A program made the translations under genes and the position numbers. Shown here one piece after another: positions 4,223 through 53,501 of a stretch of 64,000 nt of DNA; the first letter of the stretch is position 1, and every line of letters begins with the position of its first letter. The notes beneath the pieces are model-generated. The model did not search any database, had not been told where the DNA came from, and saw nothing but the letters and a program-made list of their open reading frames with translations. Origin of the DNA: Octopus vulgaris (taxonomy: Eukaryota). The DNA lies in NCBI GenBank assembly GCA_951406725.2, contig OX597827.1, positions 75,578,001 through 75,642,000 of the forward strand, written 5' to 3'.

Positions 4223-4393
4223 TCCATGAATTCGTTAAATAAATCCGACATATTCTCATTGTCCTCGGTTTTCACTTGATTTAAAATGATATCGAGTGAT
4301 TTCCGAGATTTATCTTCGGGGGTTTTTTTCTGTTTGAATCTCATTCTTGTTCTCGATCGAAATTAATGAATGACTCAAAAGATGATCAATAAT
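4223..4393 (-). pseudogene. Internal fragment of the CARD-only gene, frameshifted
   Basis: Close copy of about 6578-6746. Translates IIDHLLSHSLISIENKNEIQTEK / PEDKSRKSLDIILNQVKTEDNENMSDLFNEFM, with T7 vs T6 in a homopolymer (frameshift). Cut at 4394 by a MITE terminus. Confidence 0.85.
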
Positions 4394-5357
4394 GCCGTTC
4401 AAAAGGAAAAGATCCCAAAACGGAAAAAACATTGGCAAAAATCGGCATTTCAAAATTTCAATCCCAACTCCATCACACACCCACCCCATTTTGAAATGGA
4501 GATATCGAAAGAGTAAGAACTGAAAACTGAAAGAATCCTTAGTGTTGTTAAAAGACTTCTGAATATTGGAATGTATGACAACGAAATATTTTTATAGAGG
4601 CTGCATCAGATTGATATGAAATATCTCACTTTGTGCTATCGTTTTCAAATACATCAAAATACATCGTCGAAATGCCAATGTAGTGCATATATTTTAGGCG
4701 TGACCGGTGATAAAGTCACAAATAATTTATGATGGCCTGTAATAAAATCACTGGAAAAGGTCACAATTTTGTCTAGAAAAGGGAGTCAGGTAATCAAAGA
4801 AGAATATTCAGCTCAGAAATTATTAAATATTATAAACAATTAAACTAATAAAAGAGAAAATATTTCAAATCAGTTATTAACTGGCAATACATGACTTTTG
4901 CATAATGACTCCACTTTATATATGATGGCATAACATGTGACTTTCTACTTATTTTTTTTTTATTTACGTGGATTCATATTCAGGTACTCATCAATGCAGT
5001 ACGACCTTCATTTACCCTTCACGTTCGCAGATGCATTTTAATGGCTGTTTGTTCCTTCATCAGCATGTAGCATTTATTTAAATATACGGTTCCTGCAATA
5101 AAATTCAACAATTAAAATGACTAACCCTAACATGTTGATAACTAAGTACAGCCAGCATAACTACAAACGACTGGCTTTCATCGTAACTTTCTTTAAAATG
5201 CTTTTTTCTTTTCATGAAATTTTCCGGATACATTTTAGACGATGCGCATTGCAGTTATGACTTAATGGCGGTGAAAAATAAGCTTGTTACATTCTCTTGT
5301 AATAAAAAAGAAACTATTTTAAATCAGTTATTAACTGACAATACACGACTCGTATTC

Positions 5358-5570
5358 TTTTCTACTCTAGGCATAAGGCCCGAAAGTTTAGGGAAAGGAA
5401 CAAATCGATTAGATCGACCCCAGTACACAACTGGTGCTTGATTTATCGACCCCGAAAGGATGAAAAGCAAAGTCGACCTCGGCAGAAATTGAACTCAGAA
5501 CGTAACGGCAGATGAAATACCGCTAAGCATTTCGCCCGGCCTGCTAACGTTTCTGTCAGCGCGCCGCCTT
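5358..5570 (-). mobile_element. tRNA-derived SINE, family B (aaggcggcg..ctgacagaaacgttagc head)
   Basis: Matches copies at 14050-14166, 14735-14930, 44985-45180, 48785-49310, 57338-57710 and 57790-58024; B-box-like gagttcaaattcc. Confidence 0.8.
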
Positions 5571-6495
5571 ATGACTTGTACATATTCAGACTGAATACAT
5601 TTGATGAAATTTTCCAGAGATTCGTTATAGAAGGTGCAGATTACAATGGTCTTGATAAATTTCTTTTCATGAACTTATTCTTAGTCTACACTATTGAAAA
5701 CGTTTTTCTAGAAAACTCCATTAAAGACACACATTTCAAGAAACAACATCGATGGAACACATTCTGTAGCTATGCTAGTACAGTTAAATCCATCATATAC
5801 ACATGTCTGTATCCTAAAGAAAATTCATTGCCGAACCACTTTACCATCAATAAATACCATGTAACATGCCTTTCTATCGTTATCATACTCTGCAACAACC
5901 CAAAGTAAACCTTTATTCACTTAGTGTTTGAAAATTAAAGATTCATCCAACTACATTCACTTACCATCTCAACAGGTTTATTATCATCAATACAGAATAA
6001 TTTCCAAAATATTACATCATTGCGTTGAAGTTCGTTGTTTTCTTAGTGAGTTACCGACAAATAAGACCGTCACTATTTCCAGTTCACTTATAATGATTGA
6101 TATTTTCCATAATCAAACAAAAAAAACAATTATGTTGTTTATCATTAAAAAAAAAATAAAAGGCTTTTTGTCTGAAATACAAATAATGAACGAACGAAAG
6201 TACTGCATACATCCGCATTTGATAAGATGTCACTTAAAGCCGACAACTTTCCAAATTGAAAGGTGAAAGTAATCTGTCCGTTGAAAAGTATTCGATAATT
6301 AAAATATAATGTCTGTTAATAATGCATAATATATATTATATATAAGAAGAAAAAAAACAGCAATGAGCATTTTGTTGATATAAACAAACAACTTTGTCAG
6401 AACTGTGCGGTTTTTTCCCTCTCTTTTTAAAACTATTCAATACATTAAAGTGTCTCATGTGCATCAAGATACGAACCAGATTCATGTCCCCTCTG

Positions 6496-6843
6496 TTACA
6501 TTAGGGCCGCGAGTGTTTCTTCCTCCTCAAGTGTCTCCATCAATGATGCCAAATTTCTGTTGACTTCATTTAGAACTTTCATGAATTCGTCAAATAATTT
6601 CGACTTATTCTCATTGTCCTCGGTTCTCACTTGATTTAAAATGATATCGAGTAATTTCCGAGATTTATCTTCGGGGGTTTTTTCTGTTTGAATCTCATTC
6701 TTGTTCTCAATCGAAATTAATGAATGACTCAAAAGACGATCAATAATCTTTTTTATACCCACACTATCTAAACTCTTCACAAGAACCTCATAATATCGCT
6801 GAATTATCTTTGCATTCGACATTTGCTGTAAGGCAGCCATCAT
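6496..6843 (-). CDS. CARD-only protein (115 aa), paralog of the CARD-DD genes
   Basis: Intact ATG-TAA ORF with CARD pattern IIQRYYEVLVKSL..IIDRLLSHSLISIENKNEIQTEKTPEDKSRKLLDII..FDEFMKVLNE.NRNLASLM. Aligns end to end with the N-terminal half of the ORFs at 21228, 51200 and 52818. Confidence 0.8.
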   Translation of the reverse strand: MMAALQQMSNAKIIQRYYEVLVKSLDSVGIKKIIDRLLSHSLISIENKNEIQTEKTPEDKSRKLLDIILNQVRTEDNENKSKLFDEFMKVLNEVNRNLASLMETLEEEETLAALM

Positions 6844-6913
6844 GCTCCGTGTCTGTTTGTAAAATGTTGGCGGTTGAATTTCTTAACTACACAACTACGC
6901 ATGTGCCTGCACG

Positions 6914-6920
6914 TTTTATA
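6914..6920 (-). promoter_or_regulatory. Candidate TATA box (TATAAAA) about 70 nt upstream of the CARD-only ATG
   Basis: Plus strand ttttata at 6914-6920; position plausible, but the background is AT-rich. Confidence 0.3.
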
Positions 6921-7430
6921 TTTTTCCATATAAGCAGAAAAGAACTGTTTCCTGATTGGGTGAATCTCAAAACTCTTCAATTTCAAATTTTGTTCTTTTC
7001 GGGGGTTTACTTCCCCAATTTTTCTAATATTGTACATTTGCTTCGAAATGGCCTAGTTGGATGCTAACATTCTAGGAAAGTTAACTCGTATCTCTCTTTC
7101 TCCAGTCCTAGCTTTTCTACCGTCAGATTCGGCCCACAACTTCTCTAATAACCAGCATCATGATGGCCTAGTTGGATGCTTCAGAAATGTAAATAAACCC
7201 AATATGTTTCTTAAACAAGGGACATTTTCAACCAGGCTATCCACATGCTAGAAATAACAGCCAAACCTCTCCAAACTGCGATAACAATGCAATCATTTGA
7301 CTCATCTTTCTGCAAAGATTTTTTTCAAAGTAATTTCCCATAGTAATATGACAAAGTAATTCATGTGAAATTAAAGTGGGTTTTTTTTAAAAGCTTCTTT
7401 TCATAATCAGATCTTCCATTACCAAACAAC

Positions 7431-7609
7431 GACAGTCTTCATTTCTATTAAATTTAGGGTTATAAAATATATTTTAAATGTATAGAATTAAATGAAATTA
7501 TAGCGGTTGATACTAAAGCAAAAAGATATATATTTTTATCATAGAAAAATTTTATGTAAATATCAAAAAGTGAAGGGTTTTAGTCGACAATAAAAATAAT
7601 GAAGGAAAG
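7431..7609. repeat. Orphan copy of CARD-DD gene 3' flank
   Basis: Near-identical to 20743-20923 (gacagtcttcatttctattaaatttaggg...taatgaaggaaag), with no adjacent coding sequence of its own. Confidence 0.8.
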
Positions 7610-7614
7610 CTCCT

Positions 7615-7900
7615 TGCTTTTGTTTTAATGATGTTCGTATCCAAGGCTATGTTTTTCTTTCGGCACTTGGCTATCCATACGGCCAAAGCAGCTTCCAAAC
7701 GGATGATAGTTTTATTACGAGCCGTAACCACTCTCTTCGCCGACTTATTAAAAGGTGATGGCAGCCGTCTTCCTGATGTTAGCCTCGTCCATCTTCAACA
7801 CATCCAGAAGTTTCACCTTCTCAGCGATCGTCATTATTCTTCGTTTGCGTTCAGGCTCCGTACCAGCCTTGGAAGAAGCAGCATGCTTGGGAGCCATTAC
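7615..7900 (-). mobile_element. Tigger/pogo transposase N-terminal (CENP-B/psq HTH) fragment
   Basis: MAPKHAASSKAGTEPERKRRIMTIAEKVKLLDVLK resembles TIGD1/Tigger N-termini; frameshifted. Confidence 0.7.
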
Positions 7901-8030
7901 AGAAGATGAAAACGCAAAGAAACAACAACAAAGATCACACACAGCACAGCGTAAAGTAGTACAGTAAATCACTCACCGAGAAAGCCTGGAGCCAAATGGC
8001 CGCGAGAGAGAGGGAGAGGGGGGGACCAGC

Positions 8031-9411
8031 GGAATGTGCTGCAGATCTGAGCATCGGTCAAAGCACCAGTCACAGGCCAAATTACAAAATAGAAAGCTGC
8101 GATTCGTCGTCTCTTTCCATTGCACCAATCACAGCCCGTGTTAACTTCAAATAACCCTGTATATGTTTTTTGCTGTTTTTTTTTGTTGCCATGTTACACT
8201 ACGAAATGATATTTATTATAAATATTTTAAAGGATTTAATCCTCACGAACTGCTTATTTCTCTCTATCGTTATCTTTTGGGCACTTTCACAGAAACTTAC
8301 TGCTACGATAGTCCTGATCGCTACCTCGATCTTCTTTCTGTAGCATATGGTACTTTCATTGACCCCATAATAGCGGCCTACTGCTGCATAACTTTTACTT
8401 TCCCAGAGCATATCTAGCTGTTGTGCCTTCTCAGGGAGCATCCTAACCTCTTTCTGGTGCTTAGGTTCTCTGCCAGAAACCTTCGAAGGTGTAGGGCTTT
8501 TGGGTGGAATCTTAGGGCTTTCATAACCCTGCGATAAACAACACAACAAAACCATCGAGATAACTACTGGACGCAGTTTTTTTCCAAAAATACATACAAA
8601 ACAATCTTCCTTGCTTCTTATATGTGCATAGCACGAATGTGAGATTGAGCAGAGAGTAGAAACAATCCAGGTTTTGATAGATTTAGCTTGTATTACCACT
8701 TGATACAGTAATCTATACTACAATAACGAGAGAGAGACCAGGAAGTAACCTAATTTCAATGAGGCTATATTGGCTCACAACCTTCAAAATAATCCTGTTT
8801 AAATAAACAATGTGTATGGTTACTATAGCAATGATTTAAAAAGAGTGCTGCATTAAAATGTATGTTCAGTCCCTTGTATATATATCTTTGATCTGTCATC
8901 ACTGACCCCAAATAATACTAGTGTGATACACTGTGTGTGTATATATAAATTTATAAAGGAATCTAAAAAAATATTTTTCAAACTTTTTTCCATTACACTC
9001 AAAAGCAAAAATATGGCTTATGAATTTCTTTCTCTTTGAAAGTCTTCTGCCCACCCCTTTGAAAAAACTTTCACCCACAAATTTCATTATAATCATATAC
9101 TATGCCATTGGAAAGGTATTTATATAAAATTTCATTAAAATCTGTCCATTTTCCTAAAAGTTATGAGGGACAAAGTCGGATCATGTGAATTTTTCAGAAA
9201 GCCCTCTCCCAACCCCCGATTCGCTGGCGCAAATGTTTGTTTCCATATTCGTTTAATACACTTTTTTTTTTTGTTTTTGTTTTGGTGGCCAAGAGTTAAA
9301 GTAAATATTAACTCAAACTAGACATATCGTGAATTAGATATTGGCTACAAAGCTAACACTAGAAAATTTGATGGCCAATTCCAATTCAATGAAATGCTGA
9401 AAATGTTCTGG
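8031..9411. repeat. Tandem segmental duplication unit A (Tigger 5' fragment + MITE fragment)
   Basis: Near-identical to 11500-12684 and 12988-14050; the same ORFs recur (8199/11507/13178; 8899/12157). Confidence 0.9.
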
Positions 9412-9791
9412 CCAAAATTGATGTACATCTGTTTCCAGAATGCAAGTATTATTGTAGAGCAATGGGTTTTACGAATGGTTTGGCTTGTAGCAGGTAGTGG
9501 ATTATTAACTGAGTTTGTAAATAGAATCTCAACTACTCTCAGTAATTGGTAAACATTTTAATCCAGGGCCCACCATTATAGGTGATATGTGGATATCATA
9601 TCAAAATTAACAAGATAATATTTAGATGCAAAATCAATCAAGATATCAGGTGTGTCTAAAGGCACAACACCTGTTGATTTGGCTAAACTCATCAAAGAGC
9701 TCAGTTGATTTTTGATTATTCAATTGTAAATAAAAAAAAAAGCAAAAAAACAAAACAATCTAATTTAATGTAAAATAAATCACAATTATTA

Positions 9792-11770
9792 CAGTCATCC
9801 CCCGGTGTTCATGCTTGTTACATTCCCCGAGCTCCCACAAATACTGAAAATGCGTGAATATCGGATGTGGTCTATAAAATGCCTATAAATGTCAAAATAT
9901 AACTTAAAATATTACACACACACCTGCACATAATATTTAATAATGATTTAATAAAGAATGATGTAAAATGTATGTTTACTCACCAATAATGAATGATACT
10001 GATTTAAGACGACGATGAAAATAATAAAGGTAATTACTGCACAGCAAACATTTAAAGCTCTTCTGGTGACGTCCCTTCTTGAGATGTTTTAGGAGATATC
10101 GTATCTTCATGCAAGGTTTTCTTGGTGAGTTTGAGGAACGTTGTAATGGGAAGTTGGTGTCGTTGTTTCTTCAAGATGGTGAGGAGTGTTTTATATGTCT
10201 GCATAGCCACATCGACAGCTTTTTTAAATTGGAGAGACCGAACCATATAGGGATCCCCTGTTTCAGCCTTCCCTTGCAATTCCTTTGCTGTCCTTAAAAG
10301 GTCAGATAAATGTTCAATTGCCAGGCCCACCACATCCTCCTCTTCCTCTGTATCTGGCGCTTCTGCCTCCACTTTGCTGGCAGACTTCGTTAACTCCAAC
10401 ATATCGTTGACCTCTTGTTGCGTGATGTCATCAAAACCTTTCCCAGTTTCACTGCATTGCTGACAGTCTCATGCTGAATATCTTCAGGTGAGAATCTCTC
10501 ATAGTCCTGGACGCACTCAGCCATACCTGCTTCTAGCATGCAATGAGGGTTTCCTTTTACATCTCTTTAAGAGCAGCATGGATGAGTGACAGGCATGTTG
10601 TGGTTGTAAAGTTACGCCAGTACTCCTTTAACTTGAAATTCTCGTCCAAATCTATTATGTCCACAAGGTGTTGGAGAGTGTTCTGAGCGTAAAATGTCTT
10701 GAAGGCATGGATCACACCTTGATCCATAGGCTGGATGGAGGAGGTGGTGCTGACCGGGACAAAATCAACTTGGACTCCCTGGTGATTCAAATACAAAGAG
10801 TGACCACCAGCATTATCCTTCACAAGCAACTCCATGAATTCCATGCATACGTTTTGGAGGTATTCCTTGGCTTGAGGGATGAATTATTGGTGGAACCGAT
10901 TCAGAGTTAGATTCTTGGTAATCCAGGCCTTGGGGTTGCACATCCAGTGGACAGGCAGCAGGTTTTTATTCTTATTTTTGAAGGTCCTCTGGTTTGCAAA
11001 CTTGTAGATAAGTCCTGGTTTCATCATAAAGCCAACAGCATTGCCATACATAATTAGCATCACTTTGTCCTTCTGTGCCTTAAATCCTGGGACTCTGGCT
11101 TTATCCTTCATGGTTTATGTTCTGGAAGGCATCTTCTTCCAGATCAAGCTAATTTTATCCATATTGAAAACCTATTCCAGCTTGTATCCCTTTTTCTCGG
11201 TGATCTGCCTAAAGGTCTCGAGGTACTTCTTGCTGGTTTCTTTGTCTCTTCATGCAGGCAAACACACTTTATTTTAAACCATTTCTGGAAACAGTCAAAC
11301 CATTCCCTGCTGGCTTGAAAATCTTTGGGTGCCAGTACTGTCAATGGTCTTGGTTACAACACTTTGGTGCCTTCAGCTCCCTCTCCTCTGTCAAACTGCT
11401 GGTATAATTTCTGCAATTTCTCACAGATGATGTTACTTTTAAAGGGGATTTTTTTTTTCTTGTCTTCCCTGATTCACAACGCCAAGGCAGATTCCACCCT
11501 GACGAACTACTTATTTCTCACTATTGTTATCTTTTGGGCACTTTCACAGAAACTTACTGCTACGATAGTCCTGATCGCTACCTCGGTCTTCTTTATGTAG
11601 CATATGGTACTTTCATTGACCCCATAATAGTGGCCTACTGCTGCATAACTTTTACTTTCCCAGAGCATATCTAGCTGTTGTGCCTTCTCAGGGAGCATCC
11701 TAACCTCTTTCTGGTGCTTAGGTTCTCTGCCAGAAACTTTGGAAGGTGTAGGGCATTTGGGCGGAATCTT
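9792..11770 (-). mobile_element. Degenerate Tigger/pogo (DDE_1) DNA transposon
   Basis: HTH KSYAAVGHYYGVNESTICYI; FQASREWFDCFQK; PGFKAQKDKVMLI..NAVG; DNAGGH..TTSSIQPMDQGVIHAFKTFY. Ends at TA|CAGTCATCCCCC; many frameshifts. Confidence 0.85.
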
Positions 11771-12684
11771 AGGGCTTTCATAACCCTGCGATAAACAACA
11801 CAACAAAACCATCGAGATAACTACTGGACGCAGTTTTTTTCCAAAAATACATACAAAACAATCTTCCTTGCTTCTAATATGTGCATAGCACGAATGTGAG
11901 ATTGAGCAGAGAGTAGAAACAATCCAGGTTTTGAAAAATTTAGCTTGTATTACCACTAGAAACAGTAATCTATACTACAATAACGAGAGAGAGACCAGGA
12001 AGTAACCTAATTTCAATGAGGCTATATTGGCTCACAACCCTCAAAATAATCCTGTTTAAATAAACAATGTGTATGGTTGACTATAGCAATGATTTAAAAA
12101 GAGTGCTGCATTAAAATGTATGTTCAGTCCCTTGTATATATATCTTTGATCTGTCATCACTGGCCCCAAATAATACTAGTGTGATACACTGTGTGTGTAT
12201 ATATAAATTTATAAAGGAATCTAAAAAAATATTTTTCAAACTTTTTTCCATTACATTCAAAAGCAAAAATATGGCTTATGAATTTCTTTCTCTTTGAAAG
12301 TCTTCTGCCCACCCCTTTGAAAAAACTTTCACCCACAAATTTCATTATAATCATATACTATGCCATTGGAAAGGTATTTATATAAAATTTCATTAAAATC
12401 TGTCCATTTTCCTAAAAGTTATGAGGGAAAAAGTCGGATCATGTGAATTTTTCAGAAAGCCCTCTCTCAACCTCCGATTCGTTGGCGCAAATGTTTGTTT
12501 CCGTATTCGTTTAATACACGTTTTTACACCTATAACACTTTTTTTTGTTTTTGTTTTGGTGGCCAAGAGTTAAAGTAAATATTAACTCAAACTAGACATA
12601 TCGTGAATTAGATATTGGCTACAAAGCTAACACTAGAAAATTTGATTTCCAATTCAATTCAATGAAATGCTGAAAATGTTCTGG
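11500..12684. repeat. Tandem segmental duplication unit B
   Basis: Near-identical to about 8245-9411. Confidence 0.9.
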
Positions 12685-12987
12685 CTCCTAGTTGACTACA
12701 CCTGTGTCAGGTCTATAAAGAATCACTTTATTTGATGTGCATTCCCCTCATAAAATGGTAGAGTGTGGTTTGAGGAAGATTTGGTTGCTATTCTTGTAAG
12801 TTGAATGACCATATAGGGGTTCTCACACTTGGATTATGTTGTTGTTTAACCCCAGGTCAGTCCTGACTGAGTAGATCTGTGATCAAATGTACTGAATAAG
12901 TGACATAGAGTAGGGTGGCAGGAACTCAATCTGAATGCCCTCATGCGACAGATCGGTAGCGTGGCCACCAGCGTTATCCATAAGAAG

Positions 12988-14050
12988 GGAATGTGCTGCG
13001 GATCTGAGCATCGGTCAAAGCACCAGTCACAGGCCAGATTACAAAATAGAAAGCTGCGATTCGTCGTCTTTTTCCATTGCACCAATCACAGCCCGTGTTA
13101 ACTTCAAATAACCCTGTATATGTTTTTTGTTGTTGTTGTTTTTTTTGCTTTGATACACTTGTTTTGTTGTTCCTAGACTACGAAATGATAATAATTATAA
13201 TAAATATATTAATGGATTTCATCCTGACGAACTGCTTATTTCTCTCTATCGTTATCTTTTGGGCACTTTCACAGACACTTACTGCTACGATAGTCCTGAT
13301 CGCTACCTCGGTCTTCTTTATGTAGCATATGGTACTTTCATTAACCCCATAATAGCAGCCCACTGCTGCATAACTTTTACTTTCCCAGAGCATATCTAGC
13401 TGTTGTACCTTCTCAGGGAGCATCCTAACCTCTTTCTGGTGCTTAGGTTCTCTGCCAGAAACTTTGGAAGGTGTAGGGCTTTTGGGCGGCATCTTAGGGC
13501 TTTCATAACCCTGCGATAAACAACACAACAAAACCATCGAGATAACTACTGGACGCAGTTTTTTTCCAAACAAACATACAAAATAATCTTCCTTGCTTCT
13601 AATATGTGCATAGCACGAATGTGAGATTGAGCAGAGAGTAGAAACAATCCAGGTTTTGAAAGATTTAGCTTGTATTACTACTAGATACAGTAATCTAAAC
13701 TACAATAACGAGAGAGAGACCAGGAAGTAACCTAATTTCAATGAGGCTATATTCGCTCACAACCCTCAAAATAAACCTGTTTAAATAAACAATGTGTATG
13801 GTTGACTATAGCAATGATTTAAAAAGAGTGCTGCATTAAAATGTATGTTCAGTCCCTTGTATATATATCTTTGATCTGTCATCACTAGCCCCAAATAATA
13901 CTAGTGCGATACACTGTGTGTGTGTATATATACATAAATTTATAAAGGAATCTAAAAAAATATTTTTCAAACTTTTTTCCATTACACTCAAAAGCAAAAA
14001 TATGGCTTATGAATTTCTTTTCTTTGAAAGTCTTCTGCTCACCCCTTTGA
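12988..14050. repeat. Tandem segmental duplication unit C (truncated by a SINE)
   Basis: Near-identical to 8031-9063; ends where a family-B SINE fragment (14050-14166) begins. Confidence 0.9.
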
Positions 14051-14172
14051 AAGGATGAAAGGCAAAGTCGACCTCGGCGGAATTTGAACTCAGAACGTAA
14101 CAGCAGATGAAATATGGCTACGCATTTCGCTCGGCATGCTAACGTTTCTGCCAGCTCGCCGCCTTTCAAATA

Positions 14173-21227: not shown

Positions 21228-21923
21228 TTATTCTTCCATCTCTTCTTTTAAAAAATCCTCAATAGATTTACAGACATCATTCATGTCTATATTGCAATGA
21301 TCAGAAAAGCGATTGATGGCTTTTATAAGTTTTGTTAATGCACCACGCCCATGGGCTTGTTTTTTTCTCCAGGAATTAAATGCCTCAAACTTCTGGTTAC
21401 GTGTGCAGTATGGGTTGTCTTGCCTAACATTATCAATTTTTATGCTCTCAATACCTAATTCAGCAGCAACAGATTCCCATCCAGAGCCCATATGCTTCAA
21501 AATACGATTTAACAGTTTCTCAGACAAATCTATATGTTTAACATGTTCAAGGATATTATTTATGTTAAGTTCGTCATTCGGCACACTTTCGTCATTCGGC
21601 ACACTGTCATCAGCATTTTCCACGGTTGATGCTAAACTCGGGTTATGTTCTCTTAGACATTTCACAAATCCATCGAATATTTTTGACTTATTCTGTTTAT
21701 CCTGGCTTTCCACTTTGCGGTGAATAACGTCTAGTAATTTCCGAGCTTTTTCTTGTTCAGTATCTTCTGCTTGAATTACATTCTTTTCCTCGTCATTGAT
21801 AAACGATTGAGATAAAAGACGATCAACCATGTTATTTATTGTCACATCATCAAGCCCATGCACAAGATCATTACGACATCGTTTAATTTTAATTGAGTTC
21901 CCGAGCTGCTGTTTGTTAGCCAT
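21228..21923 (-). CDS. CARD + death domain adaptor protein A (231 aa, RAIDD/CRADD-like architecture), intronless
   Basis: Residues about 8-102 form the CARD (IKRCRNDLVHGL..VDRLLSQSFINDEE..TEQEKARKLLDVI..FDGFVKCLRE.NPSLA), followed by an acidic linker. Residues about 130-222 form the DD (LSEKLLNRILKHMGSGWESVAAELGI..NQKFEAFNSWRK..LTKLIKAI). Confidence 0.85.
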   Translation of the reverse strand: MANKQQLGNSIKIKRCRNDLVHGLDDVTINNMVDRLLSQSFINDEEKNVIQAEDTEQEKARKLLDVIHRKVESQDKQNKSKIFDGFVKCLREHNPSLASTVENADDSVPNDESVPNDELNINNILEHVKHIDLSEKLLNRILKHMGSGWESVAAELGIESIKIDNVRQDNPYCTRNQKFEAFNSWRKKQAHGRGALTKLIKAINRFSDHCNIDMNDVCKSIEDFLKEEMEE

Positions 21924-22269
21924 CGTGCTCTGAGTATGATTAGACAGTCAGTTTTCTACGTGGATACACTAAAAAAATTTGCCGTTCAACTTCTTTATGC
22001 AGCGACGTCTGCGCATGCACACTGAATGTGTTGACGCTCAAAACTGCTGTAATGTGGGTCAATTTCGCGTATAAATTTCATTTCCATATCATACAACTTG
22101 TGCTCAGCTCGGTGTTATAACGCAAGAACTGTCGTTAAGCCCAAAGTATAAACGTGTATTAAAGTTAATTCAAATAAACATAATTATGTCCATGCATTCC
22201 GACTTTCAGTTTAATCGATTTTAGAGAAGCTAAAACTTTTAGTTTCTGAGTGAATTTCTAAATTACATA

Positions 22270-27136: not shown

Positions 27137-27171
<35 letters not shown>

Positions 27172-27393: not shown

Positions 27394-28104
27394 CGAGGCT
27401 AGGACTCGCCATGGAGTGAATATTCGGCAGCTTTTAACTGTTTGTTCCAACGCTTCATCTTTGTATCCCGCAAGTCTGGCCAATCTCCTGATGTGGCAAA
27501 CACGTCGACCTCTTCACTCGTCCACTTTGCTTTCCCCAGTGAACCATATGCCATAAATGACCCTTCCGTAAAAGCCTCTATCAGCCGAACATCTATTTTT
27601 TCTTCGCTTAACTGGTCCTTCTCCTCTATTTCCAGGTATAGTGCCAACGCCGATCCATCGAGGTACAATGGAATGAAACTCGATAGGTCATATATACCGT
27701 GGTGTCTTGCCACCAACTTAATTTTTATCAACCAAGCGGCGGTGTCTCCCTCGCCGCAAAATAGCCTAAACGTCTCGTTCGAAACAGGAACCATACCAAT
27801 CATTTTTTTTTTTTTTCTTTTTGAGCCGAAATAGCTTGTGATGTGAAGGAGGAAAAGACAGAAGCAGAGGGAGAATTGCGGTAGTCTTACCTATCGATCT
27901 GGAAGGGTCACTCACAATGTCCGCATACTCTGTCTGTCGCCGTACCATCTAACAGGTCTGCTCTCGTACGCTATCCACTGCCAACTTACTGCTTACATTT
28001 CGCCAACACCGCATGCCCACTGCGGCCATTCTGGTGGGACCCACAGTCCCCACTTCCGACAGGACATGCGTACTACCTTAGTTCCGGTCCTTCTCTACAC
28101 TACA
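27394..28104 (-). mobile_element. Gypsy LTR retrotransposon 5' LTR (27837-28104) + gag fragment
   Basis: LTR homologous to 579-848; gag-like ORF 27399-27803 (FCGEGDTAAWLIKIKLVA..FIPLYLDGSALALYLE). Confidence 0.75.
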
Positions 28105-28219
28105 GAATCAAAAGGTAATCGATGATTCTTTGTATAGTCACACTTTCAAAACTCTCCACAAGTTCCCTATAACTTCGCTGAATTATAGTTGTATTCAACA
28201 ACTGCTGTATTCCAGACAT
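28100..28219 (-). pseudogene. 5' end of a CARD-family paralog disrupted by LTR insertion
   Basis: Translates MSGIQQLLNTTIIQRSYRELVESFESVTIQRIIDYLLIL* (cf. MAALQQMSNAKIIQRYYEVLVKSLDSVGIKKIIDRLL). 5' flank 28220-28306 is homologous to 21924-21995 and 6860-6898. The stop is supplied by the LTR start. Confidence 0.85.
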
Positions 28220-30306: not shown

Positions 30307-31270
30307 GTGAATGGCAAACTGCCAAGCAAGCTGAAGGAGGGAATAATATGCCCAATACATAAAGGGAGAAGTAGAGCAGATGCCAAAAACTATAGGCCTA
30401 TCTCTCTGACTTCACACATCAGCAAAGTCATGGAACGGATAGTCAGAAAGAAACTAATCGCATTCCTTGAGGAAAATAACTTGCTGAGTAATACCCAGCA
30501 TGTAGGAGCTGCCTGACCCAGCTCTTACAACATTATGACTGGGTGTTGAGGCAGTTACTCAACAAATCAAATGTGGACGTAATCTACCCTGATTTTGCAA
30601 AAGCTTTTGACAAGGTGGATCATGGTATGATATGCCACAAACTACGTGACCTCAGCATAGCTGGAAAACTTGGAGTGTGGTTGCATGACTTCCTGAAAGA
30701 TAGGAGTCAGGCAGTAGTGGTTAATGGAGCCAACTCTATGAACACACAAATAGTGAGCGGTGTTCCACGGGGCACTGTCTTGGGACCACTGCTTTTTATA
30801 GTGGCCCTCTCAGATATGCCCTCAAATGCCCGGATAGCCACTCTGGCCAGCTATGCAGACGATACGAAAGTCTCGCAGAAAATACAGAACCCCAGCGATG
30901 TTGCACACCTGCAGCAGGAGTTGGACTCAATCTACAGATGGGCTGAGGATAATAATATGCAGTTTAATGCTGAAACATTCCAGGCCCTGCACTACCAGCA
31001 TCCAAAACTGAATATTAAACTTACAGGATACACCAGTCCACAGGGAATTTCAATCCCAGAGCCTAAGTCTGTGAGGGACCTGGGTATCGACATGAGTGAT
31101 GATACCTCTTTCCAAGTGCACATTACCAGGATGGCGACAAAGTGCAGACGACTGGCTGGGTGGATCCTAAGAACATTAGTCTGGCGGACATTCGTCCTCA
31201 GTCGCCTGGATTACTGCTCACAGCTATGGTCACCCACCAGTGTAAAATTAACAGCAGACCTTGAAGAAAT
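30307..31270 (+). mobile_element. LINE reverse transcriptase fragment (CR1/L2 group)
   Basis: [56 protein letters not shown]; frameshift near 30510. Confidence 0.9.
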
Positions 31271-31313
31271 ATATATATATATACATACATATATATATAC
31301 ATACATACATACA

Positions 31314-31347
<34 letters not shown>

Positions 31348-31353
31348 CATACA

Positions 31354-31387
<34 letters not shown>

Positions 31388-31404
31388 CATACATATATAC
31401 ATAC

Positions 31405-31441
<37 letters not shown>

Positions 31442-31648
31442 CACATATATATATACATACATATATATATACATACATATATATATACATACATATATAT
31501 ATACATACATATATATATACATACATATATACATACATATATACATACATATATATATACATATATATATACATACATACATATATACATACATACATAT
31601 ATACATACATACATATATATATATACATACATACATACATATATATAT

Positions 31649-31681
<33 letters not shown>

Positions 31682-31707
31682 CATACATACATACATACAT
31701 ACATACA

Positions 31708-31739
<32 letters not shown>

Positions 31740-31745
31740 CATACA

Positions 31746-31777
<32 letters not shown>

Positions 31778-32045
31778 CATACATACATATACATACATAT
31801 ATACATACATACATATATACATATATATATACATACATACATATATACATATATATATACATACATACATATATATATACATACATACATACATACATAT
31901 ATACATACATACATATATATATACATACATACATATATATATACATACATACATATATATATACATACATACATATATATATACATACATACATATATAT
32001 ATACATACATACATATATATATACATACATACATATATATATACA

Positions 32046-32077
<32 letters not shown>

Positions 32078-32322
32078 CATACATATATATATACATACAT
32101 ACATATATATATACATACATACATATATATATACATACATACATATATATATACATACATACATATATATATATATACATACATACATATATATATACAT
32201 ACATACATATATATATACATACATACATATATATATATATACATACATACATATATATATACATACATACATATATATATACATACATACATATATATAT
32301 ATATACATACATATATACACAT
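31269..32322. repeat. Compound (TA)n/(TACA)n microsatellite, about 1.05 kb
   Basis: Directly visible; explains the stop-free I/Y/H/T and M/Y/V/C ORFs. Confidence 0.98.

Positions 32323-34426: not shown

Positions 34427-34428
<2 letters not shown>
32323..34428 (-). mobile_element. LINE ORF2 3' half (RT to C-terminus, 3' UTR, (ATCA)n tail), same family as 30307-31270
   Basis: Open frame from about 34428 to 32407 with [57 protein letters not shown]; tail tgattgattgattgatt at 32322-32338. Confidence 0.9.
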
Positions 34429-36820
<2,392 letters not shown>

Positions 36821-36822
<2 letters not shown>

Positions 36823-39000: not shown

Positions 39001-39043
<43 letters not shown>

Positions 39044-39241
39044 CATATATATATAACAATTGCAGCGTGGAAGGTGTTTATAAGCCATTTAAGAAACACA
39101 CAAAAGCCGTTTGATTCACTTCAACATTTAAGTTTAATTTGTCAAAATATATTCGTCGCTAAAATCCGCGACCTGTTCACTGACAAAGTCCGTGCTGCAT
39201 CACACACACATACATACATACGTACATATATATATATAAAT

Positions 39242-43362: not shown

Positions 43363-44170
43363 AGTTAGATTAATATTGAAAACAGAACTCAAAGAGAAAA
43401 ACAAGATAATAGATATCAACGCTGTAGCTGTCCCAGTTATAAGTTACAGCTACAATATTCTTAACTGGACTCTAAATGAACTAATCAAAATAGACAGGAA
43501 AACAAAAAATATGACCAAATTTAGGATGCACCACCCAAAATCTGAAATAGAAAGCCTGTATATGCAATGTACTGAAAGTGGTAAAGGCCTTATACAGCTA
43601 GAAAACTATTATAAAGTTACCACCATAAGACTATAGAAACACCTACTTCAGAAGCAAGGAAAACTAATACAAATTGTCACAAAACACAAGCAAAACAAAA
43701 AATTGTTTTCTGTCTTTAAGAAAGTTGAAAAATACAAATAAAAAGTCATAGTACCTAAAAACTATGAAGAAAAAGAAGAAACAACAAAAGCTGTAAAATA
43801 ACTGAAATTCAAACTAAAACTGGGACAACAGCAAATCATAAAACAATGGCAAATATTGGGTTGAACTAAAGATAAATAGACAAAGCAAAATCCCAACAAT
43901 GGCTGAGAGGCTCAGGACTCAAAACAGAGACTGAAGGATTTTTAATGGCAGCACAAGATCAAAGCCTTCCCACCAGAAATCACTGAAAACAAATAATGAA
44001 AAGAAATACAACTGAAGAATATGTGGTGATGGGGAAGAAGCAATAAATCATATCGTCTCAAGCTGCCCAGTCCTGGCTAAGAAAGAATATATTCACAGAC
44101 ATGACAGAGTTGGGACCTACATACACTGGAAGCTATGCCAAAACTATGAAATGACAAAAGAAAAATGATG
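43363..44170 (+). mobile_element. R4/Dong-like internal fragment
   Basis: LILKTEL..NAVAVPVISYSY..MHHPK; later [16 protein letters not shown] and HIVSSCPVLAKKEYIHRHD. Confidence 0.75.
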
Positions 44171-46232: not shown

Positions 46233-46592
46233 TCTCTCTTTACTCTTTTACTTGTTTCAGTCATTTGACTGTGGCCATGCTGGAGCACCGCCTTTAGTCG
46301 AGCAAATCGACCCCAGGACTTATTCTTAGTAAGCCTAGTACTTATTCTATCAGTCTCTTTTGCCGAACTGCTAAGTTACAGGGACGTAAACACACACATA
46401 CACACATACATATATACATATATATACGACGGGCTTCTTTCAGTTTCCGTCTACCAAATCCACTCACAAGGCTTTGGTTGACCCGAGGCTATAGTGGAAG
46501 ATACTTGCCCAAGGTGCCACGCAGTGGGACTGAACCCTGAACCATGTGGTTCGTAAGCAAAGTTACTTACCACACAGCCACTCCTACGCCTA
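46233..46592 (-). mobile_element. tRNA-derived SINE, family A
   Basis: Reverse-complement match to 22270-22655. Confidence 0.85.
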
Positions 46593-47199
46593 TGTCTATT
46601 GAGTTTATTAGTTTTCTACGTCCATAAATAAGTTTAAAAATATAACTCTGCTGAAACAGAGATGACTATTTTCGAAAAAGTTGTTCCTCTTTGTATAGAA
46701 GTCGCGCCAACATTACTGAATGCTATTCTCAGTGCCAAGCGATGTTATTACCAGAAATTAAAGTGGTCTCCCTTGAACGCATGCCTGTCGCAGCTGTGCG
46801 TGGGCGCGTCTTTTACAATAACACTTCCTTGATCTGCTAACTGGCAAGACGGATGCTATCCTACGGCAATACAATCAATGCCAGTTCCTCTTCATCTCAC
46901 TGACCTTATTCTGTCCGCTCACCACATCCTGATCTCCTCATAAGTGCAACATTCCTTCTTAACTTTTCACAATTCAATAGCAAATTGCAACATTCCAAGT
47001 CGTACCACGAGTGCCTTTCAATAAAATATTTCCCGTGAGGATGGCGAACAGATTGTCAAGTCTAACATAATTTAGATAGTTTAACATTATTAAACTTTCC
47101 AATTACAATGCAGAAGCCAAAATCGATTTGTTGATCAGTGGGGTTATCAGTTTGAGAACCTGTGTCTCAATCCCAGAAATCAATTACAATAGAGCGATA

Positions 47200-47436
47200 A
47201 AAATTACATTATTTACATTTGACGAATATTTGTCCTCATCTTGTTTGTTGTTAACACGTTTCGGCTGATATACCCTCCAGCCTTCATCGGGTGTTTTGGG
47301 GAAATTTCGAACCTGGGTTCTCATTCCTAACGTATTTTTCGGTGTTGTTATTATTATCGTTATTATTCAGGTCACTGCCTGGAATCGAACTCGGAATCTT
47401 GGGGTTAGTAGCCCGCGCTCAACCGCTACGGCATAT
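47200..47436 (-). mobile_element. tRNA-derived SINE (family D)
   Basis: Minus-strand head tgccgtagcggttgagcgcgggctactaaccccaagattccgagttcgattcc with A/B boxes, followed by a non-tRNA body. Confidence 0.6.
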
Positions 47437-47438
47437 GC

Positions 47439-48439
47439 TTAACACCCGACCACCAAAACAAAAAAAAATCGCAATAAGTATGAAAAAAAAATGTGAATTA
47501 AAGGAATATGAGAACAAAAATTTGTGCCAACGAATTGGAGGTGGGGGTGAAAGGACTTTCAGAAAATTCACAAGATCCGAATTTTTTCCCTCATAACATT
47601 CAGGAAAATTGATATCCTTGATTGAAATTTTTATACAAATACATTTCAAACAGTATGAAGAAATTTGTGGAGAAAAATTTTTTTTCCGAGGTAGTGGGGG
47701 TGGACTTTCGGAAAATTCACACGATCCGATTTTTTACCTCATAACTTTTAGGAAATTGGATCTTTTAATGAAATTTTATATAAATACCTTTCAAATGGCA
47801 TTGATTAAGATTATAAAAAAATTTGTAGGGGAAAGTTTTTTTTTTCCGAGTGGGTGGTCAGAGGACTTTCGAAGAGAAAGTTCTAAAATATTTTTACGCT
47901 TGAGCGTAATGGAAGTTTTAAAAAAAATTAGATTCATTCATTTTTCGTTTGAGTAATAGAAAAAGGTTTTTAAAAAGATCCCATGTATTATGATGGGAGA
48001 AACAAATTCATAAATACGGTGTTGAATATAGTTTCACTATGGAAAAATGTTAAGGGCAATTTAGCACATCCCTACCGTTGGGATCTTTTTTAAAACCTTT
48101 TTCTCAAACGAAAAATAAATAAATCTAAAGATTTACCCAATTTTTTTTCAAACTTTTTTCTATTACACTAAAGCTAAAAAAATCATCTCCCCACTCCCTC
48201 CGAAAAAATTTTCCCCACAAATTTCTTTATAATCGTAATCTATGTCGTTTGAAAGGTATCTACATAAAATTTCATGAAAAGATATCCATTTTCCTAAAAG
48301 TTATAAGGCAAAAAATCGGATTTTGTGAATTTTCCGAAAATCCTGTCCCCCCCCCCCCGGGTCGTTGGCGCAAATTTTTGTTTTCATATTCGTTTAAAAC
48401 ACCTTTTTTTTTTTTTTTTTTTTCGTGGCCGAGTGTTAA
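47439..48439. mobile_element. About 1-kb fold-back MITE bounded by TTAA
   Basis: TTAAcacccgaccac ... gtggccgagtgTTAA with long imperfect inverted arms; one-arm copies at about 8960-9300 and 12220-12572. Confidence 0.65.
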
Positions 48440-48784
48440 AGTAAGCATTAATCCGATAAAGTGCTTTTGAAAACAAGAATGAAGATACGACAGATACTGA
48501 AACAGAAACAATCCCCAGTTAGTGTTATTAAAAGACTTTTGGCTGTTAGAATGTATGACAACGAAATATTTTTTTTTAAAGGCTGTATCAGATGGATATG
48601 AAATATATCACTTTGAGCTATCCATTACAAATATATCAAAATATATCGAGGAAATGCTAAACTAGTGTATACATTCAGGTACTCATCTACGCGGGACAGC
48701 ATTCATTTACCCTAACTTTCGCAGATTCTTTTTAATGGCCTTTTAATCCCTGACCGGGATGTCTAATACACAGTTCCTATAATA

Positions 48785-49310
48785 CTTTCTACTATAGGAA
48801 CAGAGCCTGAAATTTTGCGTGAGTCGATTATATCGACCCTAGTGCATAACTGGTATTTCATTTATCGACCTCGAAAGGATGAAGGACAAAGTCGACTGGG
48901 CAGAATTTGAACTCAGAACGTAGCGGCAGACGAAATACCTATTTCTTTACTACCCACAAGGGGCAGAGGGAACAAACAAGGAAAGACAAACGGATTAAGT
49001 CGATTATATCAACCCCAGTGCCTAACTGGTACTTATTTAATCGATCCTGAAAGGATGAAAAGCAAAGTCGACCTCGGCGGAATTTGAACTCAGAACGTAG
49101 CGGTAGACGAAATACTTATTTCTTTACTACCCAGAGGGGGCTAAACACAGAGGGGACAAACGGATTAAGTCGATTACATCTACCCCAGTGCGTAACTGGT
49201 ATTTAATTTATCGACCACGAAAGGATGAAAGGCAAAGTCGACCTCGGCGGAATTTGAACTCAGAACCTAGTGGTAGACGAGATACCGCTAAGCGTTTCAC
49301 TCGCTGCTTT
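48785..49310 (-). mobile_element. SINE family B with internally triplicated body and about 17-bp TSD
   Basis: Three tandem bodies; flanked by acacagttcctataata / acacggttcctataata; the empty site is visible at 18502. Confidence 0.8.
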
Positions 49311-50274
49311 ACACGGTTCCTATAATAAAGGTGATTAAACCACGAACATGATTAACCTTAATATGCTGATAATTAAGTATAGTCGGCGTAACTACAATCG
49401 TCTTTGTTTCCCATAACTTTCTTTAAAATGCATTTTTTACTGAAATTTTTCAGATGGTGAACATTACAATTATGGGTAAATGGCAGATGAAAAACAAGTC
49501 GTTTCGTTTTCTTGGGAGAATCATTTCCGCTTCCCACCGAACTTTATTAAAATCATGCGTTTAACGAAATTTTCAAGAGATACGTTATATCTTACAATGG
49601 TTTTAACAATTTTTTTAACAATAAATTTATTCGCAATCAACACTATTGAATACGTATTTCTAGAAAATGCCATTAAAGATGTACGTTTTAAGAAAGGTAT
49701 AGGGGAAATCAAAATCGATAGGGCGCCTTCTGTAGCTATCCAGCACAGTTAAATCCATCATATATACTTGTCTGTATTCTGAAGGAAATTCATTGCTGAA
49801 AGGTTGGTTTTAATGTTGCAGAACCACCTTATCATTAATATCCATCACGTAACACGCCTTTCTATCTTTATCATACACTACAAACACACAAAGTAATCCA
49901 GCCTTAATTTTGTGTTTGAAAATTAAGATTCCTCCAATTACATTCACTTACCATTTCAGCAAGTTTATTATCAACAATATATCGTTGCGTTGAAGTTCGT
50001 TGTTTTCTTAGTTGCCTCCAAATAAGAGTCTTCATTTCTGATAAATTTATGGCTTGTTGTAGCACAGAATTTTGTCAGTGATCAGGTCGCGGTCCCAAAG
50101 CGACGAAAATATTTTGGCAAATTAAATTTTAATTTTGAAGTAAATCTAACGGTTTTTGTGTGTTTTTTAAACGGTTTTCAAACACCTTCCGCGCTGCAAT
50201 TGTTTTGGTTTCAGCACACGATCTCAGATCAGGTCATTTGCTATGCAAGTACATCTCCGTAATATAAATATATA

Positions 50275-50607
50275 AAGGGTAAAGACCCCCTTCGGTCATG
50301 AATGACCATGGGATTGCACCTAGAAAGTTACCCTCCTAGACACAAGTCCGGGCAAGGTTGTTTATGGAAGACCAGCAGTCGCCCATGCATACCGGATTCC
50401 CCTCTCCACGCCACCAGTGTTATCCAAGGGAAAGACAAAGGTCGATACAGCTTGGCACCAGAGACGTCGCAACTCATTTCTAAGGCTGAGTGAACTGGAG
50501 AAACGTGAAATAAAGTGTCTTGCTTAAGAACACAACACGCAGCCCGGTCCGGGATTCGAGCTCACAACCTCACGATCGTAAGGTCGACGTTCTAACCACT
50601 GAGCCAT
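50275..50607 (-). mobile_element. tRNA-derived SINE
   Basis: Minus-strand head atggctcagtggttagaacgtcgacc..gagctcgaatcccggacc. Confidence 0.7.
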
Positions 50608-51199
50608 ATATATATATATAAAGATTATATACAACCGGTGTTTAGCATTAGGGTTACGCCGAAAACGGGTGGTGTGTGTATTCTTTACCTCCGTATTCTT
50701 TACGCCATATATGTGTGTGTGCGCGCGCGTATATATATATATATACATATGAAATTATACTGATTGATACTATCCGTAACTAAAACAAAAAATATATATA
50801 TTTATGATAAAAAAATTTATGTAAATATCAAAAAGTGAAGATTTGTAGTCGACAATAAAAATAATGAAGGAAAGAGTCGCATACTTCCGCGTTTGACATG
50901 ATGTTACTTTAAGACGGCAACTTTCCAAAGTGAAAATCGAAAGTAATCTGTCCGTTGAAAAGGATTCAATAATTGGAATGTAATGTCTGTTGATAATGCA
51001 TTATTTCGCTTTTCGCATGTCGATGTTTAATATCAGTCCACAACGTAAGAATTATGCCGTTTAGTGTAGGATAATTTCATTTTTGAAGTGTCGATTCTTT
51101 ATGTCCATATCAAAAAGTGTATCGGTGAAACTGTATTTTTTTTTATATATTAACAAACAACATTGTAAAATCTGCGCGTTATTCTTCCTTCTTTTCTTT

Positions 51200-51856
51200 T
51201 TAAGGGTCTTCAATACATTCAAGTATTTTATTCATGTTGAAATTGCAATGAACAGAACAGTAATTGATGGCTTTTATAAGTTTTGTTAATCCACCACGTC
51301 CAAGGGTTTCTCTTTGCCTCCAGAAATTAAATATCTCAAACATCTGGTTTCGTGTGCTGTGTGGGTTGTTTGCCTTAGCAATACTAATTTTTACGCTATC
51401 AATATCTAATTCGGCAGCAACAGATTCCCATCCAGAGCCTATAAACATCAAAATACGATTTAACATTTTCTCATTCAAATCTATATTTTTAACACGTTCA
51501 AGGATATTACTTTTGTCACTTTCGTCATTCGGCACACTGTCATCAGCATTTTCCACGGTTAATGCTAAACTCTGGTTATGTTCTCTTAGACATTTCACAA
51601 ATCCATCGAATATTTTTGACTTATTCTGTTTATCCTGGCTTTCCACTTTGCGGTGAATAACGTCTAGTAATTTCCGAGCTTTGTCTTGTTCAGTCTTTTC
51701 TGCTTGAATTACATTCTTTTCCTCGGAGGTGATAAACGATTGAGATAAAAAATGATCAACCATGTTTTTTATAGTCACATCATCAAGCCCCTGCACAAGA
51801 TCCATACGACATCGTTCAATTTTAATTGAGTTTCTGAGCTGCTGTTTGTTAGCCAT
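51200..51856 (-). CDS. CARD + death domain adaptor protein B (218 aa), recent paralog of A
   Basis: Intact ORF collinear with 21228-21923; CARD KARKLLDVI..FDGFVKCLRE and DD IGSGWESVAAELDI..NQMFEIFNFWRQ. Confidence 0.85.
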   Translation of the reverse strand: MANKQQLRNSIKIERCRMDLVQGLDDVTIKNMVDHFLSQSFITSEEKNVIQAEKTEQDKARKLLDVIHRKVESQDKQNKSKIFDGFVKCLREHNQSLALTVENADDSVPNDESDKSNILERVKNIDLNEKMLNRILMFIGSGWESVAAELDIDSVKISIAKANNPHSTRNQMFEIFNFWRQRETLGRGGLTKLIKAINYCSVHCNFNMNKILECIEDP

Positions 51857-52817
51857 CGTGCTCTGAGTATGATTAGACAGTCAGTTTTCTACGTGGATAC
51901 ACTAAAAAAGTTTGCCGTTCAACTTCTTTATGCAGCGACGTCTGCGCATGCACACTGAATGTGTTGACGCTCGAAAATGCTGTAATGTGGGTCAATTTCG
52001 CGTATAAATTTCATTTCCATATCATACAACTTGTGCTCAGCTCGGAGTTATAACGCAAGAACTGTCGTTAAGCCCAAAGTATAAACGTGTATTAAAGTTA
52101 ATTAAAATAAACATAATTATGTACATGCATTCCGACACGCTATCTGAAAACTGTGGCGGGAGAAATCGCTTATACGGAACCTCATATTTGACTGATATTT
52201 TATTTCATCGCCTCTGGAGAAAAGTTAATATTTTCTAATCGTTTTCTAGTTGCAACAAAAACCCCACCTAACCAACACATTTTCACCTCGTTGATTTAAT
52301 CTATCAGGTGGAATTTTGTTCTTGTACACTAAAAACACAGTTGTTTGGGTTGGTCTACCCTATATACACTTATTTTCCCCCATCTAAAATTGCTAGTTAT
52401 TTAGTCCAGAGAGAAGAGACCATATCCATAACGTTTGCATACCCTTAAGTCACTGAGACGATGCGGTTGTTGATAGTTGCAGGTAAAATGCGGATAGAAA
52501 ACGTTACAGTTGTAAGGAAAGATAGTGAGAAGAAAGCAAAGGGCGGGAATTTGTAGATGAGAGAGAGGGTAGGAGTGGTATAAGAGAAACGGGTGAATTC
52601 AGTTTATAACAGGATTTTCGGAATAGTCACGTGCCCTATGAGAACAGAAAAGAATACCCTTCCACTTTGCAGCGAGTCATTCCTAAACATCGCCTACTGG
52701 AGATGTATAACGCACGGTGTCCTGGATGGGAGAACCAGGAAGTGTTACGCGAGAAGTGCTCGAATGTTTGTAACTAACATAAACTCAAGGGAGATCACTC
52801 TCAGTTCCGGTAAGGAA

Positions 52818-53501
52818 ATGGCTGACACACAAGAAGTTTTCAATGGGAACAAAATTCAACGAAGTTACAAACAACTTGTGGACGGCATCGATGAAGTAGT
52901 TATAGGGTCAATACTTGATTACTTCTTTGCAAGTTCAATCTTCATTCCGGAGGAAGTGCATACTGTTGAAGCAGAGCCAATTATAGAAAGAAAAAATCGA
53001 TGTTTTCTCAATTTCCTTCTTGAGAAAATGAAACATGAGGACAGAAGTAATATTTCTAGGATATTTGATGAATTTTTGAAGTGTCTGAGAGAAAGCGAAT
53101 TAGATTCTTTGGCCACACTCGTGGAAGAAACTGACAATTCACCGTTGGTAGACCTAGAAGTGGATGCCATTATTGATAGTACTAAAGATTTAGATCTAGA
53201 CGAGAAAATGCTTGCTCGTGTCTTAATGCATGTGGCTAGTGGTTGGGAAGCTGTAATTATCGAATTAGGTCTTGATTTTGTGAAAATTACTGACGCTAAG
53301 GAAACTGATAATGAGTTCATACAGAAGTTCAAAGTATTTAATACCTGGAGACAAGCAGACGGTCTCTTGCCTGGTGCAGTAGTAAAACTTTTGACAGCGC
53401 TCAGAGAATTTCCAGAGATTGTAAACTGGAGCAAAATGAAGAACACTATTGCCATAGTTCACCGAGAAATGGAAGCTGGTTCAAGTACGAGTCCTTCTTA
53501 G
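52818..53501 (+). CDS. CARD + death domain adaptor protein C (227 aa), divergent paralog
   Basis: Start placed by homology (MADTQEVFNGNKIQRSYKQLVDGI). CARD ..FDEFLKCLRESELDSLATLVE and DD LDEKMLARVLMHVASGWEAVIIELGL..QKFKVFNTWRQ..VVKLLTAL. In-frame upstream ATGs at 52638 and 52764 cannot be excluded. Confidence 0.82.
   Translation: MADTQEVFNGNKIQRSYKQLVDGIDEVVIGSILDYFFASSIFIPEEVHTVEAEPIIERKNRCFLNFLLEKMKHEDRSNISRIFDEFLKCLRESELDSLATLVEETDNSPLVDLEVDAIIDSTKDLDLDEKMLARVLMHVASGWEAVIIELGLDFVKITDAKETDNEFIQKFKVFNTWRQADGLLPGAVVKLLTALREFPEIVNWSKMKNTIAIVHREMEAGSSTSPS

Follow-up and report, generated by a model that had tools for sequence, protein, structure and literature searches.

Does the octopus possess the caspase adaptor CRADD (RAIDD), and if so in what form? 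Published accounts conflict: passages of PMC11463336 present CRADD as the only, and hence conserved, activator of CARD caspases in molluscs and mark Octopus bimaculoides as having it, whereas a passage of PMC9389742 reports it as absent from squid and octopus. The question is raised again by a stretch of 64,000 nucleotides of the 2.8 Gb Octopus vulgaris genome (C14:75,578,001-75,642,000, on a chromosome-scale contig; hereafter the window), in which three intact single-exon open reading frames (ORFs) encoding a CARD and a death domain (DD), named A, B and C, one CARD-only ORF (D) and two dead fragments were found. These genes are part of a larger cluster that probably descends from CRADD/RAIDD.

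The CARD-DD cluster and its relation to CRADD

Gene A (21228-21923, minus strand, 231 aa) matched both CARD (9.9e-13) and Death (7.5e-8) in Pfam, and was 74% identical to gene B (51200-51856, minus strand, 218 aa) in pairwise blastp. Gene C (52818-53501, plus strand, 227 aa) was more divergent, with 38-40% identity to A and B over about 200 aa, and gene D (6496-6843, minus strand, 115 aa) shared ~50% with them. Each intact CARD-DD gene was composed of a CARD, a short linker and a DD, with no further domain. The dead copies, both on the minus strand, were recognized by sequence comparison as a piece from inside a D-type CARD, lacking both ends and frameshifted by one base (~4223-4393), and as an N-terminal stub, F, of 39 codons, 37 of them family-like, truncated by a repeat insertion (28100-28219). 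The inserted repeat (27837-28105) resembles window positions 579-849, and the 37 residues of F recur left of the window. An earlier note on this DNA had listed these six features, and all of them were recovered in place by ORF and blastp comparison, which also supplied the strands.

The tandem cluster outlined in that note was real but incomplete. When its extent was mapped by tblastn over C14 75.43-75.73 Mb, it ran about 92 kb beyond the left window edge, where four more intact CARD-DD genes were located: E (C14:75,559,996, minus strand), H (C14:75,544,700, plus strand), G (C14:75,540,95x, minus strand) and the divergent K (C14:75,486,2xx, minus strand), together with a D-type copy interrupted by three stops and another instance of F. 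Over its whole extent the cluster has seven intact CARD-DD genes, spread over ~145 kb, besides a single CARD-only gene and four dead copies, which bears out a tandem expansion with dead members. One extra copy, frameshifted, was found on contig C8; nine of the ten genome matches fall in a single cluster and are not dispersed, which argues against the ORFs being passengers of a transposon.

CARD and Death were detected by Pfam above cut-off in A, B, E and G, and CARD in D. Gene C reached 20.9 bits for CARD (cut-off 23.9) with no Death match, and aligned through both domains to a CRADD-like profile over 192 columns (E 2.5e-15); H gave only a sub-cut-off CARD match, and K matched neither CARD nor Death. 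The AlphaFold model of B consisted of two helical bundles joined by a loose linker (pLDDT 86, pTM 0.52). The first bundle matched CARDs (Apaf-1: Z 13.0, root-mean-square deviation (rmsd) 1.5, 87 residues aligned), and the second had the RAIDD death domain as its best match (Z 12.2, rmsd 2.2, 91 aligned); Foldseek returned zero matches at E <= 0.001. Pfam in A, B, E and G, the profile in C and the model of B therefore agree on the architecture previously proposed, an N-terminal CARD and a C-terminal DD with no other domain, which is the hallmark of CRADD/RAIDD.

The likeness to CRADD extended over the full length. In hhalign the family aligned with CRADD-like proteins collinearly over 210 columns, C-terminal helix included (E 2.6e-27), the comparison set being mostly unnamed proteins taken as CRADD-like by architecture and Atlas neighbours. 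The best solved-structure match of B by sequence was the CRADD DD (E 1e-6), its Atlas neighbours were CARD-DD and CRADD clusters (0.88-0.90), and a CRADD-like query against the genome returned this cluster as five of its top five matches. Together with the fold match to RAIDD, these comparisons make it quite probable that the cluster represents descendants of CRADD/RAIDD, as had been suspected.

The named relatives belong to Octopus sinensis, O. bimaculoides and Argonauta hians. Together with several unnamed proteins they formed a clade of 20 rows (99/99) in a tree of 28 rows that has no outgroup and whose rows are mostly unnamed. In this tree K paired with an Argonauta protein (100/99), which would place the origin of the multi-copy state before that split. 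The octopod distribution proposed earlier agrees with the named relatives, all of them octopod; an octopod-specific family is at most possible, as the clade also holds unnamed rows.

The claim that the module is undescribed appears to hold for the cluster and the way in which it evolves, and not for the gene itself. Gene E is the public record CAI9733328.1, "domain-containing CRADD [Octopus vulgaris]", one O. bimaculoides copy is likewise auto-annotated "CRADD", and the species also figures in the paper cited above. A "death domain-containing protein CRADD" is listed in the O. vulgaris skin-mucus proteome (PMC11431876), and PIDD and CRADD annotations in bivalves appear in passages of PMC8917759 and PMC7836458. 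No description of the cluster was found in the full-text literature searched, whose coverage leaves out subscription journals. What appears to be new is thus the cluster with its way of evolving, single members being already known as CRADD.

Duplication, recombination and selection

Gene A and stub F are carried by a segmental duplicate (9628-30255, plus strand) that matches the region from 30.7 to 4.4 kb left of the window in blocks 96.7-98.9% identical, with E as the counterpart of A. Over this 20 kb, ~98% identical overall, the differences were concentrated in the coding sequence (CDS), at 77/657 sites (11.7%) versus 19/739 in the adjacent flanks (p 9e-12). When A and E were compared in 200-base bins, flank differences stayed at 0-1.5% through most of the block and coding bins reached 7-13%, the exceptions among the flanks being 4.5% in the bin beside the stop and 3.5-4.3% at the far end. 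A false duplication of haplotypes was rejected, since no N gap was present in the window or in any of the 20 flanking stretches counted and ~14 kb separate the copies. A true duplication is favoured, though not proven, and the coding divergence would stand even if A and E were alleles. Internal repeats of ~1 kb with decayed DDE transposase frames (window 8031-14052; 93-96% alike) are repeated in the left duplicate.

Genes A, B and E are mosaics, their informative sites falling in blocks (37 runs versus 76.5 expected by shuffling, p ~1e-4), and the O. sinensis protein XP_036365012 resembles A/B over 150 columns and, beyond them, is 97-100% identical to G. The two domains gave conflicting trees. 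In the DD tree, G, XP_036365012, the O. bimaculoides relative XP_052828591 and an unnamed protein formed a clade (97/98) rejected by the CARD (approximately unbiased (AU) test, p 0.008), and in the CARD tree A, B, E, G and XP_036365012 formed a group (79/99) rejected by the DD (AU p 6e-13), both p-values being optimistic because the groups were chosen after the sliding-window identities had been seen. This conflict shows, at the level of sequence comparison, that DD types have been kept from one species to the next and that the CARDs have been homogenised, so that near-identical CARDs bear old, distinct DDs. In contigs of other animals at window positions 51009-51501, letters of the A type and of the E type occur together, a hint of additional recombinant alleles.

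Codon models gave a ratio of nonsynonymous to synonymous rates (dN/dS, omega) of 2.2 for A/B/E (likelihood-ratio test, p 0.003-0.006). Pairwise values were 2.7 for A-E (p <0.01), 2.3 for B-E (p ~0.02) and 1.9-2.1 for A-B (p 0.03-0.06). These were obtained with an M0 script whose likelihoods agree with IQ-TREE to about 0.1 for three-sequence sets; its four-sequence star fit was about 10 units worse and was not relied on. The CARD alone also rejected omega = 1 (p 0.003-0.005). Of the proposed combination of a variable DD with a constant CARD, only the variable DD types therefore stand, dN/dS in the CARD being above 1. Variable sites were found at 68/156 non-core positions versus 13/62 positions of a hydrophobic-core proxy (p 0.002), and GC-biased conversion was discarded as the source of the high dN/dS, weak-to-strong and strong-to-weak changes being balanced (43 and 45). 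The A/B/E subgroup gains amino acid changes faster than silent ones, mostly off the core.

Recent duplicates beside pseudogenes, and lineages common to several species, agree with the birth-and-death evolution previously suggested, to which concerted evolution of the CARD half is added here. Segmental duplication and inversion enlarge the cluster, it loses copies by frameshift, nonsense mutation and repeat insertion, and neighbours swap segments.

Gene structure, expression and origin

In genes A, B and D the ATG is preceded, at a distance of 8-13 codons, by an in-frame stop, and assembled contigs bridge the ends of B and C. For B, run X1 contigs cross the stop (50846-51284) and the start (51730-52257); for C, X1 and X10 contigs cross the stop (53063-54746 and 53062-54561), reaching ~1.2 kb of 3' sequence. 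The ORFs thus stand alone and are not exons of one larger gene. The B/C stretch was contained in 20 of the 24 listed runs, none of which is recorded as RNA; read mapping covered four runs, with the run type RNA guessed and paralogues cross-mapping at 90%. Among the joints listed for these four runs, no splice joint fell within the B or C CDS. The names "isoform X1/X2" on consecutive O. bimaculoides accessions suggest a 5' exon common to alternative coding exons, and no such joint was present around B and C among those listed. There is moderate evidence that B and C are expressed unspliced.

B and C lie head-to-head, as do G and H, the latter being the paralogue of C (62-63% aa identity). The 961-bp spacer between B and C (51857-52817) is probably a promoter region common to both. 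An identical 16-base motif stands ~85 bases upstream of the starts of B (51938-51953) and A (22005-22020), and is partly kept in G and D. We take it to resemble an NRF1-type promoter site. The start of C is ambiguous, with in-frame ATGs 18 and 60 codons upstream (possible starts 52764 or 52638), and in both C and H a GTAAG that resembles a splice donor lies only a few bases upstream of the ATG (window 52810-52820; L018:6690-6702); the relative P0012 reads through it.

In K, the most divergent member, codon 6 is followed by an intron with GT/AG ends; the start codon lies ~10 kb upstream on a short exon of its own, and CARD and DD are on one exon. An intron-split parent gene was not found in the genome with two CRADD-like queries, and the caspase arrays on contigs C5, C19, C26 and C28 likewise consist of single-exon domains. 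Since no parent was found and such single-exon domains are common in this genome, the founding retrocopy that the earlier note gave as a possibility is unnecessary, and the early intron in K, whose CARD and DD already share an exon, speaks against it; in a cephalopod ancestor a retrocopy may have occurred, although unsupported.

Two observations concern the surroundings of these genes. Between K and G, an exon at L015:5204-5461 (C14:75.513 Mb) gave a weak, sub-cut-off match to uroporphyrinogen-III synthase (HEM4, E 8e-4), a possible synteny anchor, and no immune-type neighbour gene was seen among the flanking ORFs (114 of 432 kept after repeat filtering and judged by eye). Inside the window (31269-32317 and 34428-36821), AT-rich microsatellites of great length lie next to LINE-like frames for reverse transcriptase and give rise to spurious long ORFs.

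Possible function and comparison with known systems

The reading that we lean towards, by a modest preponderance of the evidence, is that the cluster is an octopod CRADD/RAIDD expanded in tandem, which would link DD sensors to CARD caspases while its surface diversifies. The mechanism would follow the vertebrate PIDDosome (described in a passage of PMC11463336): an upstream DD-bearing sensor would nucleate the adaptor DD into a helical oligomer, whose CARDs would recruit a CARD caspase, either caspase-2 or a caspase-Y-like array, for activation by proximity. Separate DD types might respond to separate sensors, D might act as a decoy competing for the caspase, and the diversification of the surface could stem from pathogen conflict or from co-evolution with expanding partners.

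Candidates for these partners are present in the genome. One caspase-2 locus was found, on contig C3, and an array of 23 single-exon caspase matches, many with a CARD, occupies C26:33.70-33.81 Mb and resembles by eye the caspase-Y sequences of the PMC11463336 supplement. Of the members of this array that were read, several lack the catalytic cysteine. More tandem single-exon caspase arrays lie at C5:54.15-54.52 Mb (25 matches), C28:6.29-6.38 Mb and C19:7.04-7.13 Mb. A multi-exon caspase on C7 was discarded as a CARD caspase, no CARD being found in the ~93 kb upstream. On the sensor side, an LRR-Roc-COR ORF of 1068 codons is followed, 10 kb behind and on the same strand, by a DD exon (C10:44.437-44.451 Mb) that is the most PIDD-like DD (6e-9), with the PIDD1 DD as its best solved match; judged by sequence, the two are a candidate upstream partner. 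Another candidate is an expanded ankyrin-DD family (C29:27.9-29.4 Mb, C31:2-10 Mb and C30:19.16 Mb). One transcript whose level rose 4.9-fold in haemocytes infected with Aggregata (PMC4199593 Table S2) resembles by eye the DD of this family.

Other CARD arrays were also seen. At C24:38.85-39.06 Mb, at least 11 tandem exons of two alternating types encode a high-scoring CARD after an acidic region; they were rejected as caspase-2 genes, since the caspase search had no match there. Tandem long single-exon ORFs at C26:30.94-30.98 Mb, with a related single copy on C20, encode a CARD at the N terminus and, after it, a series of ~130-aa repeats, for which no Pfam match was obtained in the one ORF scanned.

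Several results weigh against an adaptor of the CRADD type that is under diversifying selection. A PIDD1 locus was not found in a non-exhaustive search, which gave no PIDD autoproteolysis match and six ZU5 matches at four loci, three of them inspected. The family profile matches the RIPK1 DD (4.6e-9) before the CRADD DD (3.9e-5), a vertebrate CRADD-like query puts the FADD DD first in the genome, and the CARD of the B model is closer to Apaf-1, caspase-1 and NLRC4 (Z 12.8-13.0) than to the RAIDD CARD (Z 9.4). The post hoc choice of tree groups counts here too, omega for C-H is ~0.7, and a count-based selection test was weaker, with omega 1.3-1.8 and p 0.14-0.008 depending on the kappa assumed. 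In the Aggregata infection transcriptome (PMC4199593), three exact cluster motifs had no match in the two supplementary tables, one of them in shortened form, and none of the three occurred among the 538 transcripts tabulated as altered by the infection.

A farther-reaching form of the preferred reading appears unlikely: a recombining repertoire of adaptors, with old DD types on fresh CARDs, each linking an expanded sensor (ankyrin-DD or LRR-Roc-COR-DD) to the caspase-Y array, in an inflammasome-like immune death system that would replace PIDD and APAF-1. Also unlikely is that NF-kB, antiviral transcription or a different CARD partner (RLR, RIPK or Bcl10 type), and not caspases, are the targets of the CARD-DD proteins, which would be either repurposed CRADDs or an independent fusion of CARD and DD. 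The best solved relatives of the family profile (RIPK1 DD and NLRC4 CARD), the long branch of the clade, with 18-26% identity to CRADD-like proteins, and the several non-caspase CARD arrays of the genome would fit this explanation; the collinear two-domain homology down to the C-terminal helix, RAIDD as the best DD fold match and the fact that no other two-domain CRADD candidate was found in the genome would not.

Mostly neutral turnover has a still lower probability in our judgement. One or two copies would then do the work of CRADD and the others would be redundant under relaxed constraint in an unstable, repeat-rich locus, the dN/dS values and mosaicism being by-products of gene conversion. 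The four dead fragments of the cluster, the frameshifted copy on another contig and the borderline count-based test agree with this, as do the large single-exon caspase arrays, which make expansion look like a genome-wide habit; however, pairwise omega is significantly above 1, the hydrophobic core is spared, and both the DD types and the CARD-only form are kept across species. Finally, it is improbable that the fast A, B, E and G are decoys or guards absorbing or sensing DD-targeting pathogen effectors while the slower C, H and K carry the signal, since A/B/E/G have better Pfam scores than C/H/K, even if both domains diversify in the former, C/H has the lower omega and the two types stand head-to-head twice.

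An octopus locus with at least seven divergent copies, some under diversifying selection, is unusual for an adaptor. It bears on how molluscs activate initiator caspases without APAF-1 and may bear on cephalopod immunity and senescence, and there are hints that octopuses diversify the link between danger sensor and caspase. The swapped DDs on near-identical CARDs make up a small natural variant set in which partner specificity is directly testable.

Compared with CRADD/RAIDD, the octopus proteins have the same N-terminal CARD, short linker and C-terminal DD, in ~200-230 aa and with nothing else. Vertebrate CRADD has an intron between CARD and DD, whereas in octopus both are on one exon, and no PIDD1 was found in the octopus genome by the non-exhaustive search. 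At least seven intact copies are present in octopus, whereas a passage of PMC9334734 counts one CRADD in Aplysia, and the octopus copies are recombinant and positively selected, in contrast to the conserved CRADD of the PMC11463336 passages.

Gene D arose by internal deletion of the DD-coding part, its CARD being intact and its 3' flank still homologous to A and B. The corresponding protein of O. sinensis, XP_029645552 (93% over 102 aa), likewise is CARD-only, so a CARD without effector domain has been retained in both. The caspase-1 cluster includes the CARD-only proteins ICEBERG, COP and INCA, and D, like them, is a CARD-only derivative within its parent cluster; it differs in coming from an adaptor that lost its DD internally and not from a caspase, and as an inhibitor it is putative.

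Oyster MyD88 shows an expansion with truncated forms. Bivalve death and immune families such as the IAPs covered in a passage of PMC8917759 resemble the octopus cluster in being mollusc regulators of signalling or death that have expanded in tandem and include truncated forms. The octopus cluster differs from these in concerning another adaptor and another lineage, and in having exchanged its DD types onto homogenised CARDs.

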